Positions 54,236-60,463 of a DNA stretch of 64,000 bases are shown one piece after another. The notes under the pieces were generated by a model that had not been told where the DNA came from, ran no database searches, and saw only the letters and a list, made by a program, of their open reading frames with translations. The number at the start of each line of letters is the position of its first letter. Positions within the stretch are counted from its first letter, which is position 1. The translations under genes and the position numbers were made by a program. The DNA is from Candidatus Krumholzibacteriia bacterium (lineage in GTDB: Bacteria > Krumholzibacteriota > Krumholzibacteriia > Krumholzibacteriales > Krumholzibacteriaceae). The stretch covers positions 160,001 to 224,000 of the forward strand of contig CAWIIQ010000002.1 in the NCBI GenBank assembly GCA_963836185.1, written 5' to 3'.

Positions 54236-55555
54236 TCAGTGCGGCTCCGCGCAGATGAGCCACTCCGGTACGGCGGCTATGCCGTACCGCTCGGAATCGC
54301 TGAGGTCGAGTGAGAATACTTCGCTCTGGTACTCGATGACGAACTTCTCCTCGTCGGAAGTCCCGGTGGCGTCGAGGACGACGAGTCTGTTCATCCGCGT
54401 GTCGATCAGGTAAAGATGGTCCCCGAGAACGGTGATGTCTCCCCAGCGGCCGGTCAGGTTGTTCGTTCCTCCGAAGTAATCGAAGAAATCGAACCATTTC
54501 GGCTCCACGTCCCACCCTGATTTGATCCGGGCGACACTTCTTGAGTTGCCGTTGCTGTCGACAGTGATATACAGGAACCCTTCACTGTCTACGCACATTC
54601 CTCTCGGTGAGCCGATGCCGGTATCAAGTGTGAATACCAGGTTGTCCGTGACTTCTCCCTTCCCGTCCCATTCGTTCCAGGAGATATTGTACAGCGGCCC
54701 GCTGCCGGTCGCGATAAAAAAGTCTCGCGATACCGGGTCCACGGCGAGGTTCTCATAGTTCACGATATAGTATTCAGCCAGCAGTACGGCTGGCACCCCG
54801 GGGCATCCGATCGTGTAGACGTTCGTGTTGCCGACAAGCAGCAGCACCCCGCCCATGTTGAACTCTATCTCGCTTCCGGTAAGTACGGGGAGCTCAGCGT
54901 ACTCCGTGAGGATCTTCGTGTCGGGCTCGACCTTGTAGACGTCCGTTTGTGTTGTGACGAACATCTCTCCTCTCGATGAAAAGTCGATATCGCGCAGAAT
55001 CAGGTCTGTCTCCAGCACCTTTTCCGTGGCCCCGGTCGCGGGGTCGAAATCGATCAGGACCGATCCGAGGCCCGTTATCATCGAGGAGGAGGTCGTCGTT
55101 ATGAATACGTGTCCGCCGGGCCACTGGCACGCACTCTCAGGGCTCTCCTCTGTGCAGCCCAGCGCGTTGGCCGTATGATTGAATGTCGTGGAATCGGTGC
55201 CTGACCTGACCCCTGCCATCTGGGCGCCGGCTATCGCGCCCAGCCTGAAACGGGCCGAGGCATAGCCTTCCCTGTCAGTATACATATCCGGAGGGTCGAT
55301 CGCCGCTCCAGGATCTTCCGTGCTGAAGAATACGGGCGCGCCGAAGATCGGATTTCCGTTAAGATCGGTCACCCTGACGACCATCGGTTCAGGCAGGACC
55401 GCACCGACTCTCTCGGTCTGGCGGTTTCCGCTCGTGACCCTGATATTCGTGATGCCTTCGAGGTCCTCGTTCTTGGAATCATCGCAGGAGACGAGGATCA
55501 CAGAGGAAAGCAGCAGGATAAACAATATCGATACGATCTTGTATGCAGTGGTCAT
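54236..55555 (-). CDS. Lipoprotein with Ig-like domain and probable beta-propeller
   Basis: Lipobox LVSC; SGN.Q...VG..LP.P.VVRV.D..GNP..G..V.F; repeated strand motifs. Confidence 0.7.
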   Translation of the reverse strand: MTTAYKIVSILFILLLSSVILVSCDDSKNEDLEGITNIRVTSGNRQTERVGAVLPEPMVVRVTDLNGNPIFGAPVFFSTEDPGAAIDPPDMYTDREGYASARFRLGAIAGAQMAGVRSGTDSTTFNHTANALGCTEESPESACQWPGGHVFITTTSSSMITGLGSVLIDFDPATGATEKVLETDLILRDIDFSSRGEMFVTTQTDVYKVEPDTKILTEYAELPVLTGSEIEFNMGGVLLLVGNTNVYTIGCPGVPAVLLAEYYIVNYENLAVDPVSRDFFIATGSGPLYNISWNEWDGKGEVTDNLVFTLDTGIGSPRGMCVDSEGFLYITVDSNGNSRSVARIKSGWDVEPKWFDFFDYFGGTNNLTGRWGDITVLGDHLYLIDTRMNRLVVLDATGTSDEEKFVIEYQSEVFSLDLSDSERYGIAAVPEWLICAEPH

Positions 55556-55723
55556 AACAGGACACCATCCTTCGTCAGTATCCCCGGAGCATCGTTCATT
55601 ATCGAGACTCTATGAGAATCAGGCGCCCGCGTCAACGATGATAAGCAAAAACTTCTTTGAACGACCGCCCCGACATATGTAAAGTCAGGGGCAGGTGACA
55701 GATGTCGTTAACAAGGAGGGTGC

Positions 55724-57304
55724 GTGGACGGCAGCGGATTCGCTTACCCATGGATCGTGAAGCGCGACATTGATGGCTTCTTCGGGCTGGCTATAGACAA
55801 TCTCATACAGTTTCTCCTCATCGCGGCGCTCTGCCCCGTCATCGCGGGCATCCCGGCGGAATTCGTGTTTACCAGGATAATGCCCGGTGCGGCGCTCTCG
55901 GTGATCATCGGCAACCTTTTCTATTCGTGGCAGGCGAGGAAACTCGCCGAAAAGGAAAAGAGAGCGGACGTTACCGCTCTTCCGTACGGGATCAACACGG
56001 TGAGCCTCTTCGCCTACCTCATCTTCATAATGGGGCCTGTATACAGAGAAACGGGAAGCTACGAGATGGCGTGGAAAGTCGGTCTGCTGGCATGCTTCGG
56101 CAGCGGCATCATCGAATTCGCCGGAGCTTTCTGCGTCGATATCCTCAGGCGCATCACTCCGAGGGCGGCGCTGCTCTCGACCCTGGCTGGTATAGCGATC
56201 ACCTTCATATCGATGGATTTTGCATTCCAGACATTCGAAAAGCCGCTGATAGCAATGCTGCCCCTCGCGATAATACTCATCCAGTACTTTTCGAAGGTGC
56301 GGTTCCCGTTCGGCCTTCCCGGCGGAGCTGTAGCCCTGGCCGCGGGGACACTGCTGGCCTGGGCGTTCGGGCTTATGGATGCGGGAGCGGTCTCCGGGGC
56401 GGCTGCGCAGGTCGGATTCTACGGGCCGAGATTCGCCGGCGCCGACCTGTTTGAAGTGATGAGGAGCCCCTACCTGTGGAAGTATTTCTCGATCATCATC
56501 CCGATGGCGGTGTTCAACGTCCTCGGATCGTTGCAGAACCTCGAGTCCGCGGAGGCGGCAGGTGACAGGTATGAGACGAGGCCCTCGCTGGCAGTCAACG
56601 GCATAGGCACCCTGATCGCCTCGTTATTCGGCTCCTGCTTCCCCACGACATTATATATCGGGCACCCGGGCTGGAAGGGGCTCGGCGCGAGGACGGGATA
56701 CTCGGTCCTCAACGGTATCTTCTTCGCCGTCGTCGCCCTATTCGGGCTGGTCCGGCTGATCAATACGATCGTTCCTATGGAGGCGGGTATTGCGATCGTC
56801 CTCTGGATAGGGATAATCATCTCGGCGCAGGCGTTTCAGGCTACGCCGAGGAATCACGCGCCAGCGGTAGTGGTCGGGCTGTTTCCCGCCTTCGCCGCAT
56901 GGGGAATCAATCTCCTCAAGCTCGGTTATCAGGGAGCGGGGACGACCCTGTCGGAGGAGGCCGCGAAGGGAGTGCCGATCAACGGATTCATGGGGATGCT
57001 CGCGCTGGAGCGCGGATTCATATTCACATCGATGATGCTTGCCGCGATCAGCGTCTTCCTGATAGAGAGGGAGTTCCGCAAGGCATCGCTCTGGTCGCTC
57101 GCCGCGGCGGTCATGGCGTTCTTCGGAGTGATCCACACATACGAGTTCTCAGGGAACGAGACGGTCAGTGTCCTGGGCTGGAACACCGGCGGGCCATGGG
57201 CATTCGGTTACTTATGCTTCGCCGCAGTTTTCATGGTCTTTTTTCTATGGGAAAGATCAGTCAGGAAACGTTCTGGAGAGGGGCTCGAGATCCAGGATCA
57301 CTGA
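55724..57304 (+). CDS. NCS2-like membrane permease
   Basis: DIDGFFGL..DN, TALPYGINT, ESAEAAGD, YIGHPGWK; many TM helices. Confidence 0.85.
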   Translation: MDGSGFAYPWIVKRDIDGFFGLAIDNLIQFLLIAALCPVIAGIPAEFVFTRIMPGAALSVIIGNLFYSWQARKLAEKEKRADVTALPYGINTVSLFAYLIFIMGPVYRETGSYEMAWKVGLLACFGSGIIEFAGAFCVDILRRITPRAALLSTLAGIAITFISMDFAFQTFEKPLIAMLPLAIILIQYFSKVRFPFGLPGGAVALAAGTLLAWAFGLMDAGAVSGAAAQVGFYGPRFAGADLFEVMRSPYLWKYFSIIIPMAVFNVLGSLQNLESAEAAGDRYETRPSLAVNGIGTLIASLFGSCFPTTLYIGHPGWKGLGARTGYSVLNGIFFAVVALFGLVRLINTIVPMEAGIAIVLWIGIIISAQAFQATPRNHAPAVVVGLFPAFAAWGINLLKLGYQGAGTTLSEEAAKGVPINGFMGMLALERGFIFTSMMLAAISVFLIEREFRKASLWSLAAAVMAFFGVIHTYEFSGNETVSVLGWNTGGPWAFGYLCFAAVFMVFFLWERSVRKRSGEGLEIQDH

Positions 57305-57313
57305 CTTTCAGGG

Positions 57314-57440
57314 GATAAAAAGGCGCGCCTGCCGTGAGGCAGGCGCGAGACAAGCAATGATGGGCCCATTTGATGTCAGTTATGTAGTAATCCAAAGATG
57401 TCAGGTCTTCAAGCAACCCCTCGGAACCTATTGCTAATCG
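57314..57440 (-). ncRNA. Candidate small RNA (~125 nt)
   Basis: Bounded by a near-consensus sigma70 promoter and an intrinsic terminator; no ORF that closes inside it. Confidence 0.55.
57315..57347 (-). terminator. Intrinsic terminator
   Basis: Perfect 10-bp stem CGCGCCTGCC/GGCAGGCGCG (57324-57347), followed on the minus strand by CCTTTTTAT. Confidence 0.8.
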
Positions 57441-57446
57441 TGAGGG

Positions 57447-57475
57447 AGTATACCATAATCAGCCTTTTTTGTCAA
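57447..57475 (-). promoter_or_regulatory. sigma70 promoter of the candidate sRNA
   Basis: TTGACA-N17-TATACT with extended TG on the minus strand. Confidence 0.75.
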
Positions 57476-57538
57476 TATAGATTAACACTAAAGCCAGATA
57501 TTACAACAAGTTGAGTGGTTATACCTACTCCGCCCCGG

Positions 57539-57567
57539 TTGACAATAATCCCCGGTACTGGTATAAT
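57539..57567 (+). promoter_or_regulatory. Consensus sigma70 promoter
   Basis: TTGACA-N17-TATAAT with extended TG. Confidence 0.8.
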
Positions 57568-57672
57568 CCATTCCGACGTTTGAACATACAGCGGTACATT
57601 CCAGATGCCGCTTGAGATCGCGAAAAGGGGGGACACTTTCGTCTTCCCGTTTCTGCATCCGGGGGGGCGGAA

Positions 57673-58683
57673 GTGCCGGACGCCGTAGTCCGGTCAAGCG
57701 GCTCAACCGATATGCGGAAAGACAACTCGCCCGTCTTTATCACCTCTGATCCTGCCACGCGGGACCTTCTCGCTGATATCCGCAGAATAGCCGGATTTCC
57801 CGTCCCGGTCCTCGTAACAGGGGAGTCAGGCACCGGCAAGGAAGTCATCGCCAGGATGATCCACAGGTGGAGCGGCAGGGGGAGGGGGCCGTTTATACCC
57901 GTAAATGCCTCTACTCTTCGAGGAGATCTTCTGGAAAGCTCCCTTTTCGGCCATTCAAGAGGAGCATTCACAGGAGCTGTTGCAAGGCATTCCGGTCTTG
58001 CGGCCGCGGCTGACACAGGCACCCTGTTCCTGGACGAAATCGGTGAAATGGATCCCGGGGCCCAGGCAAGACTCCTCAGGTTTCTCGATTCGGGGGAGTA
58101 CCTTCCCGTCGGTGAGAGTGTAGCCAGGAGATCGAATGCCAGGGTGATTGCAGCGACCAACCGCGATCTTCTTTCCGAGATCTCGAGAGGCCGGTTCAGA
58201 GCTGATCTCTATTACAGACTGTCGGTAGCCGTGTTCAGGATCCCGCCGCTCCGGGACCGGAGGGAAGACATCCTCCCGCTTGCCATGCATTTCATCGACA
58301 GCCTGATTTCGGAATTCGCTCTTCCGGCAGTATCGCTCTCCGATGAAGCAGTGAATCTATTGAAGTCATACGACTGGTCGGGCAATGTCCGTCAGCTTCG
58401 AAACGAGATCACCGCCTCGTTCCTGAGAAAAGCGGGCGGCAGGATCGAGATGACGGATCTGTCACGGGACCTGCTCGAAACATCTCTGGAATATTCCGAA
58501 GGATACGGCGGCAGTCTCGATGCCAGGCTCATGAGGTACGAGAGGCGGGAGATGCTCGATGCCCTGCGCGCCGCGGGCTCGAACTGCAGCCGCGCTGCCG
58601 AGATCCTCGGCCTGAAGAGGACGACGCTTCTTTACAGGATGCAAAGGCACGGGATAGTGCTGAGAGAGAAGCAGAAAGACTGA
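57673..58683 (+). CDS. sigma54 activator lacking an N-terminal sensor domain
   Basis: GESGTGKE, GAFTGA, FLDEIG, FRADLYYRL, W.GNVRQL, Fis-type HTH; start may be 57712. Confidence 0.9.
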   Translation: MPDAVVRSSGSTDMRKDNSPVFITSDPATRDLLADIRRIAGFPVPVLVTGESGTGKEVIARMIHRWSGRGRGPFIPVNASTLRGDLLESSLFGHSRGAFTGAVARHSGLAAAADTGTLFLDEIGEMDPGAQARLLRFLDSGEYLPVGESVARRSNARVIAATNRDLLSEISRGRFRADLYYRLSVAVFRIPPLRDRREDILPLAMHFIDSLISEFALPAVSLSDEAVNLLKSYDWSGNVRQLRNEITASFLRKAGGRIEMTDLSRDLLETSLEYSEGYGGSLDARLMRYERREMLDALRAAGSNCSRAAEILGLKRTTLLYRMQRHGIVLREKQKD

Positions 58684-58771
58684 TATCGTTTTTCTTGCAG
58701 AAGCCGGGTTCAGGGTCGATAATCATCATATAACCGATCACATTCTGGCACTGAACGATGGAGTTGTGAAG

Positions 58772-59974
58772 ATGGCGAATATCAACAAGATAAAAGGCAG
58801 GATAGCGATCCTCACCGGAGGAGGGGACGTCCCCGGTCTGAATCCCGCGATAAGAAGTGTCACGATAAGGGCGATACGCGAAGGATATGAGGTCATAGGC
58901 ATAAGGCATGGATGGTCCGGGATGATCGAGATCGTCCGTGATAAGGAAGCCGACAACAGTAGAAATTACGAATTCCTCACCGAGGCCATGGTCAACAAGA
59001 TCGGCCGTTCGGGCGGCACCTTCCTGCACAGCTCGCGGACCCGGCCTAGCAATGTGCCGGCCAGAAACGTTCCCGATCATCTCAAGGATACCTACAGCGA
59101 CGAGATGAACGACCTGACCCCCGAGGTCCTGAAGAACCTCGACTTTCTCGGTATCGACTACCTGATCCCAATCGGAGGCGACGATACTCTGAGCTATGGA
59201 GTGAGTCTGCATCACGAGGGCGTCAAGGTCATCGCGATCCCCAAGACAATGGACAACGACGTGCCCGGCACCGACTACTGCCTCGGATTCAGTACGTGCG
59301 TCACGAGGACGATCCAGATGACGAACAGTCTTCGTACTTCGGCTGGTTCCCACGAGCGGTTCCTCGTTATCGAGGTCTTTGGCAGGTACGCTGGATTCAC
59401 GGCCCTGCTGCCGACCATGGCAGGTGCGGCAAACCGCTGCGTCATCCCGGAACACCCCTTTAATATGGAGAGGCTGTGTGAACTTCTCGTCGAGGACTGG
59501 ACCACGAATCCGAGCCATTACTCGGTCGTGCTCGTATCCGAGGGAGCCATGCCCGAGGGTGAGGAGATGGTATTCGAGGACTGTGAGCAGGATGCCTACG
59601 GGCACAAGAAGCTCGGCGGCAACAGCGACTTTATATCGAAGAAACTCAAGGAGATCTCCCCGAAATACCATGGCGGGAGAAGGATCAACGTCATCAACCA
59701 GAGGCTCGGGTATCTCGTACGATGCGGCGACCCCGATGCCATCGATTCGATAGTGCCTATGGCCTTCGGCAATCTGGCGCTCAACCTGATCCTGGAAGGT
59801 ACATCCGGGCGCCTGATCGCCCTGAAGAACGGTCGGTACGACAACGTTCCAATAGAGATAGTGACGAGTTTCAAGAAGGTCGTCGATGTCGATCAGTATT
59901 ACAATACTGACCGTTTGCGCCCCTTCTACAAGAGTTTTGAGGCCAAGCCGCTCTTTATAATGGCGAGCGACTGA
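58772..59974 (+). CDS. 6-phosphofructokinase, PPi-dependent signature
   Basis: TGGGDVPG.N, GGT.L.SSR, GGDD, PKTMDND, EVFGR.AG. Confidence 0.9.
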   Translation: MANINKIKGRIAILTGGGDVPGLNPAIRSVTIRAIREGYEVIGIRHGWSGMIEIVRDKEADNSRNYEFLTEAMVNKIGRSGGTFLHSSRTRPSNVPARNVPDHLKDTYSDEMNDLTPEVLKNLDFLGIDYLIPIGGDDTLSYGVSLHHEGVKVIAIPKTMDNDVPGTDYCLGFSTCVTRTIQMTNSLRTSAGSHERFLVIEVFGRYAGFTALLPTMAGAANRCVIPEHPFNMERLCELLVEDWTTNPSHYSVVLVSEGAMPEGEEMVFEDCEQDAYGHKKLGGNSDFISKKLKEISPKYHGGRRINVINQRLGYLVRCGDPDAIDSIVPMAFGNLALNLILEGTSGRLIALKNGRYDNVPIEIVTSFKKVVDVDQYYNTDRLRPFYKSFEAKPLFIMASD

Positions 59975-59980
59975 TCCGGA

Positions 59981-60463
59981 TCACAACTTGTATCCGAATT
60001 TTCTCAGGATGTCGTGCCGCCAGGCCTTTCCCTCGTCATCCTCGATGCCTTTCGGCTTCTCCCCGTCTATGACGCCGAGGATCCCCCGTCCCTGCTTTGA
60101 TTCGGCAACGATGACTTCTACCGGGTTGGCAGTCGCGCAGAATATCCCGCAGACTTCAGGCACCGCTTTTACGGCGTTGAGGATGTTGATAGGGAAGGCA
60201 TCCTTCATGAAGATGATAAATGAGTGGCCCGCGCTGATTGCGGTAGCGTTGTTTGTCGCCAGCTCGATCATCTCCTGATCGTTTCCGGAGAATCGGATCA
60301 GGCAGTCTCCTGATGCTTCGCAGAAGGCTATCCCGAACTTGATCCCGGCAGCGGATGATATGGCGGTCTCGTGCAGATCCTCGACAGTTTTAATAAAATG
60401 TGACTGGCCGAGGATGAAGTTGATCTCCGACGGCTTCTCGATCTTTACCGTCTTAAGTTCCAT
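59981..60463 (-). CDS. Adenosine-specific kinase / DUF355 family protein
   Basis: GQSHFIKTVEDL, AFCEASG, GH.F, CATANP, GVIDG, GYKL. Confidence 0.88.
   Translation of the reverse strand: MELKTVKIEKPSEINFILGQSHFIKTVEDLHETAISSAAGIKFGIAFCEASGDCLIRFSGNDQEMIELATNNATAISAGHSFIIFMKDAFPINILNAVKAVPEVCGIFCATANPVEVIVAESKQGRGILGVIDGEKPKGIEDDEGKAWRHDILRKFGYKL

Follow-up and report, generated by a model that had tools for sequence, protein, structure and literature searches.

A predicted small RNA gene with a duplicated unit complementary to a start-codon context in Candidatus Krumholzibacteriia

The window analysed here is a stretch of 64,000 nucleotides from the genome of a Candidatus Krumholzibacteriia bacterium (assembly GCA_963836185.1, contig CAWIIQ010000002.1, positions 160,001 to 224,000 of the forward strand), and all bare coordinates below count from its first letter. 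Between a nucleobase permease gene and the gene of a sigma54-type activator lies a predicted RNA gene on the minus strand, which converges on the former and diverges from the latter. In what follows, G000 denotes the genome studied, G001 to G006 its relatives of the same genus, and L022 a metagenome stretch that also carries the region. The features of the locus are:

55724..57304, plus strand: AzgA-like nucleobase permease, 526 aa, convergent neighbour (Atlas, 0.99 to clusters named AGZA-family xanthine/uracil permease)
57317..57441, minus strand: predicted non-coding RNA of about 123-125 nt, its start inferred at A57441 or the invariant G57439 and its end in the U-run
57317..57347, minus strand: intrinsic terminator, a perfect 10-bp GC hairpin (57347-57324) followed by CC and five U
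57349..57358, minus strand: 3' arm of the closing stem, predicted to pair with 57430..57439
57371..57390, minus strand: repeat unit 2, decayed here save its CUGACAUC tail, intact in G002, G004 and G006
57396..57416, minus strand: repeat unit 1, core UUGAAG-AC-CUGACAUC, predicted seed, intact in G000, G001, G003 and L022
57421..57424, minus strand: CCGA, which together with UCGG near the 3' end is predicted to form an inner stem, of which this genome has one pair broken
57430..57439, minus strand: 5' arm of the closing stem, GAU-U-AGCAAU, predicted to pair with 57358-57349, nearly invariant and with no compensatory change
57447..57455, minus strand: extended -10, TG-N-TATACT (TG at 57455-57454, kept in six of six aligned genomes; hexamer at 57452-57447)
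57470..57475, minus strand: -35 hexamer TTGACA, a promoter motif unchanged in six of six aligned genomes
57539..57567, plus strand: perfect sigma70-type promoter motif of the activator gene, divergent
57712..58683, plus strand: sigma54-type activator, divergent, without the N-terminal half of about 330 residues found in its orthologues

An initial annotation had proposed a stand-alone novel small RNA at this position, and the signals that it read are present. On the minus strand a TTGACA hexamer and an extended -10 are separated by a 17-nt spacer and together match 11 of 12 consensus bases (the other aligned genomes have TATACT, TATAAT, TACAAT or TATTAT as their -10 hexamer), the perfect GC hairpin and its U-tract are found where they had been placed, the body said to be AU-rich has a GC content of 43.6% compared with 55.6-57.5% for the six contigs of the genome, and the predicted transcript does converge on the permease gene, ending about 12 nt from its stop. 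Promoter-like sites number 4 within 2 kb (0.9 +/- 0.9 in shuffles) and terminator-like sites 3 (1.7 +/- 1.3 in shuffles), while genome-wide a perfect GC-rich hairpin with a T-run lies downstream of 3 of the 167 sites of the form TTGACA-N16-18-TAnnnT. The terminator hairpin is predicted with a pair probability of 1.0 in all seven homologues, and one compensatory change, from U-A to C-G, is seen in G003.

Conservation of the region is strong within the genus. A DNA search of 61 genomes matched the RNA region in five of the six other same-genus genomes (E 3e-35 or better), and returned short matches alone from the 54 more distant genomes (E 2.5e-4 or worse); the genus member with no match, G005, is 81% complete, and its permease is likewise unmatched and its activator matches weak. 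Metagenomes yielded three stretches with the region, two of them equal to G001 and G003 and one, L022, new. A covariance model run over 52 genomes of the order recovered the training genomes only (next best E 0.12), and with filters off it found nothing at 24 + 24 syntenic loci (best E 0.072 and 0.24). Furthermore, 21 viral contigs containing the 16 specified bases reached at best 12.8 bits, which we take as chance, and neither viral contigs carrying the 5' pattern nor plasmid or phage records gave a match. Among the genomes searched, the RNA is thus restricted to one genus.

In the five relatives, 76-80 nt of the 94-nt body are identical to G000 (81-85%), as are 20-23 of 24 nt of the terminator and 25-31 of 34 nt of the promoter, compared with 27-49 of 63 nt (43-78%) in the spacer between the two promoters and 39-47% at fourfold sites of the neighbouring gene, so that the body is conserved at about twice the neutral level. 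This purifying selection does not act on a conserved reading frame, since 1-nt indels, located differently in G000, G004 and G006, disrupt every frame. With regard to a type I antitoxin, for which the longer frames of the opposite strand were surveyed, an 89-codon plus-strand ORF overlaps the RNA and is broken by indels in relatives. It is highly improbable, given both the indels and the level of conservation, that the locus is a small peptide gene or what is left, without function, of the promoter and terminator of a lost gene, although a gene does lie between a like-oriented promoter and terminator at the same site in G021, G010 and G037. At the level of motifs, an intergenic position with its own promoter and intrinsic terminator, combined with selection in the absence of a frame, is among the features expected of a trans-encoded base-pairing small RNA, and we consider that the element is very probably a functional non-coding RNA gene whose transcript is predicted. 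The proposal of a stand-alone novel small RNA therefore holds with respect to conservation, retained promoter and terminator, frame-breaking indels and the lack of an Rfam family, and of the two roles that it offered for the repeat, a seed is tentatively preferred to a protein site.

The initial annotation recognised no known RNA family, and comparison with Rfam 15 agrees, the best hit within 55000-60000 having an E value of 2.8 and 16.5 bits against a cut-off of 59; nothing credible was returned from eight syntenic loci either. The genome's 6S RNA (RF00013, a hairpin of about 185 nt with a central bubble) lies elsewhere, at C1:1727883-1728068, with 75 bits. A retron msr-msd is rejected by the finding of reverse transcriptase PF00078 in none of five genomes, and a tracrRNA by a simple repeat scan that found no CRISPR array and by the lack of any genome match longer than 13 nt (16 with a mismatch). 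A box C/D-like guide or K-loop RNA is equally rejected, G001 and L022 having lost both boxes of unit 2. Our literature search found no noncoding-RNA paper on Krumholzibacteri or Latescibacter, and an unnamed earlier listing in a large RNA-motif survey may exist.

The initial annotation reported an 8-mer, CUGACAUC, twice in the body, and both copies are there (minus strand, 57404-57397 and 57379-57372). By itself, the doubled 8-mer is a weak signal, not much above chance: a repeated 8-mer occurs in 3396 of 37253 genomic 94-nt windows (9.1%), in 246 of 3048 GC-matched windows (8.1%) and in 3.2% of shuffles. However, CUGACAUC is the tail of a tandem duplication of about 21 nt, with a period of 26 nt, or of 25-27 nt across six of the seven sequences, and unit 1 of G000 matches unit 2 of G002 at 18 of 21 nt. 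The best 21-nt self-match was reached by none of 300 shuffles in G003 and G004, by 3 in G002, 8 in G001, 11 in L022, 49 in G000 and 149 in G006. Each of the seven homologues has exactly one intact copy of UUGAAG-NN-CUGACAUC, and the genomes that keep it in unit 2 (G002, G004 and G006) do not form one clade in three single-gene trees, whose support is weak. Given about six related lineages, every one of them would by chance have at least one intact unit with a probability of 0.19, and exactly one with a probability of 0.018. A single intact unit in every homologue suggests that one unit is the functional site and that the two are redundant. The repeat, read by the initial annotation as seeds or protein sites, is real, but its unit is of about 21 nt, and both 8-mers are perfect in just three of the seven homologues.

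In the consensus fold, the 5' end is paired with the stretch that immediately precedes the terminator (GAU/AUC, AGCAAU/AUUGCU and CCGA/UCGG), and about 50 weakly structured bases are predicted to form a loop between the paired ends. The closing pair probability is 0.53 in this genome and 1.0 in the other homologues, and the CUGACAUC tails are predicted to be about half unpaired (0.37-0.62). Paired cells make up 97% of the consensus fold, yet its columns hardly vary, and the covariation score is reached by 64 of 500 shuffles; the covariation check suggested with the initial annotation thus gave the fold no support, and with columns so nearly invariant the fold stands as a prediction.

That the sequence of the closing stem is near-invariant instead of covarying is a feature that a protein-binding RNA, acting as decoy or scaffold, could explain, in which UUGAA would sit in the loop of a small hairpin, CUGACAUC would form a single-stranded tail and the closing stem would serve as a docking site. 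Such a reading is helped by the bipartite core with its two free middle bases, by a weak hairpin of -4.1 to -5.8 kcal/mol that is predicted around UUGAA of unit 1 in all but one of the seven sequences, and by the conservation of candidate target starts, which is at baseline (see below). In its repeated motif, short length and own promoter and terminator, the RNA resembles CsrB and RsmZ. However, decoys of the CsrB type usually benefit from retaining all copies, whereas here one unit alone is kept intact; membership of the CsrB/Rsm sponges is further rejected by the absence of an array of GGA loops, and CsrA was found in none of five genomes. The predicted pairing of 5' and 3' ends around an open loop likewise recalls bacterial Y RNAs, a class rejected by the lack of an Rfam match and of a Ro60/TROVE gene in any of 41 family genomes. 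With no candidate partner at hand, and with the enrichment of complementary start codons described below left unexplained, we regard a protein-binding role as doubtful, though it is the main rival of the reading preferred below.

The permease itself has no Pfam or NCBIfam match, and is about 75-90% identical across the order. It was not found in G001 and G002, both of which have the RNA, there abutting a gene with an Ig-like domain; this loss may be recent, since L022, which is close to G001, retains the end of the permease gene. Proximity to the permease stop raises the prospect of action in cis, whereby convergent transcription or conditional read-through would damp permease mRNA, or the unit would insulate the activator from permease read-through in the manner of an antisense riboswitch or insulator. 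On the plus strand the hairpin lacks a U-run, and permease transcripts may therefore overlap the RNA; AGCAA, moreover, has two invariant UUGCU partners, and other genera have, at the same place and on the same strand, promoter-plus-structured units or a long stem with a U-run. We nevertheless judge action in cis improbable. The RNA persists in G001 and G002 without the permease (subject to the recency of that loss), a conserved loop sequence is unnecessary for an insulator, no riboswitch family is matched, and many genera have nothing at the syntenic site. The alternative AGCAA pairing is 4-13 kcal/mol worse, a bistable switch in which AGCAA alternates between the two UUGCU partners is disfavoured, and a transcriptional riboswitch or attenuator is rejected by the terminator's pair probability of 1.0 and by a convergent gene in four of six genomes. 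Retention of the RNA without the permease fits action in trans.

In other genera, the syntenic site is either empty, occupied by unrelated genes, or filled by structured units that are headed by a promoter and end in a long stem with a U-run. It is a variable insertion point, with differing genes or none just 3' of the permease in G009, G010, G021, G032, G034, G037 and G061. In four genera, a single-copy element of about 100 nt is found immediately 3' of the permease, on the strand opposite to it (L207 in G018, L208 in G014, L209 in G010 and L210 in G015), and consists of a 13-16-bp closing stem around about 70 variable nt, followed by a U-run; a search of 201 class genomes with this pattern found it in these four and in none of the remaining 197. 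The four elements are mutually related (z 3.1-6.7), score -1.7 to 2.95 in z when compared with the RNA described here, and gave no Rfam match in the three that were scanned. Additionally, G014 (L145:2850-3240), G015 (L155:305-535) and G018 (L157, minus strand) have promoter-headed, ORF-poor and strongly folding units of 200-350 nt, that of G014 with a 12-mer twice, 129 nt apart, and these are candidate ncRNAs in their own right.

On the other side of the RNA, the open frame of the activator spans 333-368 codons in the genus and in G008, as opposed to about 614-759 in most other genera (L128, L130-L152), where the long activators have a TPR-like N-terminal half. Such short activators may be constitutively active, or their control may lie at the level of RNA. 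Pairing of the small RNA with the activator leader was no better than that of shuffles. Upstream of the activator gene, a 28-nt stretch (57625-57652, plus strand) is identical in all five relatives (28/28) and is left over from the ancestral N-terminal coding sequence of the activator, corresponding to an R-G-D motif of full-length orthologues. Its frame relative to the activator is inconstant, and a plus-strand hairpin containing G-U pairs is predicted that would hide a purine run, making a cis-regulatory RNA born from coding DNA possible.

The position of the repeat, 150-330 bp upstream of the activator gene, also invites the idea that it acts as DNA, as a direct-repeat operator for the activator or another regulator within a short transcribed stretch of little function, and 26-bp direct repeats are possible protein sites. 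Nevertheless, the core is non-palindromic, the genome contains besides the repeat itself one near copy of the unit, which is not near any called start, and the paired ends and the terminator are conserved as well. The consensus spacing of sigma54-like promoters is GG-N10-GC, and the fit to this spacing is found in this genome only. An operator is accordingly very improbable, and even when DNA sites, a peptide and a remnant are taken jointly they would account for the locus with low probability.

The reading that we tentatively prefer, while giving it slightly less than an even chance, is that of a base-pairing small RNA with redundant seeds predicted to act at start codons. CUGACAUC is the reverse complement of G-AUG-UCA-G, and the corresponding context is enriched at gene starts. 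Using starts from a crude caller (2881 genes, 2147 with ATG), we find GATGTCAG at 13 of the 2147 ATG starts, where 5.2 would be expected (Poisson p 0.0027; fourth among 976 contexts), an enrichment that is valid if taken as one test of a motif chosen in advance and that fails correction for 976 contexts; at least two of the 13 starts are doubtful. Among starts with a Shine-Dalgarno sequence the count is 10 of 1232 against 3.4 expected. Wobble A occurs in 13 of 20 cases within the G..G context and in 29 of 110 elsewhere (p 0.0012), an effect absent from seven other fourfold codon families. Sites preceded by a Shine-Dalgarno sequence total 44 against 32.9 expected across the seven genus genomes, which as kin are not independent and of which G003 has no excess (4/24), and 28 against 40.6 and 7 against 17.7 expected in 35 other genomes (one genome being without a locus for the GC estimate). 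When the patterns are counted over the whole genome, the control GATGGCAG (10 vs 15) behaves like GATGTCAG (10 vs 14).

Several genes emerge as candidate targets. The 18-nt unit finds its best predicted duplex, among the 2881 called starts, at -22.3 kcal/mol, 3.3 below the next (ten shuffles gave -18.8 to -21.8): 14 bp, interrupted by one bulge, that span the start codon of a Tat-signal asparaginase-2-like gene (G000:C1:1072430), which is thus the best single candidate. In G004, G006 and G003 this predicted pairing drops to -15.3, -14.5 and -7.2 kcal/mol, respectively, while the RNA shows no change that would compensate, and the downstream half of the site is also constrained by the signal peptide. 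Further candidates are clpP, malic enzyme, signal peptidase I, ruvX and a lipoprotein gene. Among these, clpP begins with the site in four of five genus relatives and in none of 24 others, and malic enzyme does so in four of five genus relatives and in none of 13 others (11 more being without an assigned start). Directly upstream of the signal peptidase I gene lies a tRNA-Sec gene (G000:C1:1400422-1400519). Duplex scans with two 28-nt loop halves did no better than shuffles. Orthologues were recovered for 8 of the 13 site-starting genes, and their starts are not kept better than others, with 5/7 against 84/157 in G006 and 1/6 (2/7 including the lipoprotein site) against 26/66 in G003. The target prediction called for by the initial annotation has therefore a mixed outcome, in which the excess of GATGTCAG starts is suggestive of a seed role, but conservation of the target starts does not exceed the baseline.

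Under the preferred base-pairing model, the locus would be transcribed as a small RNA of about 125 nt, whose ends would pair so as to expose the duplicated UUGAAG-NN-CUGACAUC unit in an open loop; the unit would then pair with G-AUG-UCA-G start-codon regions of several mRNAs, and pairing at GAUGUCAG-start genes would block translation initiation. This would likely proceed without Hfq or ProQ, each of which, like CsrA, was found in none of five genomes.

Two groups of rhizobial RNAs offer the nearest parallels for this predicted working mode. As described in PMC10746234, the NfeR1/alpha-r14 trans-sRNAs of Sinorhizobium meliloti use redundant repeated seeds that pair at the translation initiation regions of several mRNAs, alpha-r14 RNAs having three hairpins with CCUCCUCCC anti-Shine-Dalgarno loops. 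The RNA described here would share their repeated and redundant short seeds, but it differs in having two tandem units of about 21 nt in one open loop, of which one is kept, in a unit that complements the start codon and codon 2 and not the Shine-Dalgarno sequence, and in showing no sequence likeness; membership of alpha-r14/NfeR1, as defined in PMC10746234, is rejected by the absence of the CCUCCUCCC motif from the sequence. EcpR1 of alpha-rhizobia is, according to PMC4414408, an Hfq-independent trans-sRNA with a conserved loop motif that pairs over the ribosome-binding site and start codon. It differs in its GC-rich 12-nt loop motif, its 5' hairpin and its Hfq-bearing host, and no sequence likeness is apparent.

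A fuller hypothesis, which we consider unlikely to be correct in all its parts, would be that of a chaperone-free small RNA of an uncultured lineage, with a seed directed at the start codon and codon 2 instead of the Shine-Dalgarno sequence, and with a regulon that includes clpP, signal peptidase I, malic enzyme, ruvX and the Tat-exported asparaginase. Those starts would have been acquired in the genus ancestor, and the seed would have been duplicated, with one copy then kept per lineage. The range of the RNA is narrow, being one genus among those searched, and no new kind of system is apparent. If the base-pairing reading is true, the element would constitute a new small RNA family whose seed is defined and whose targets are named, from a lineage in which Hfq, ProQ and CsrA were not found, and would provide a clear natural example of reciprocal loss after the duplication of a seed.
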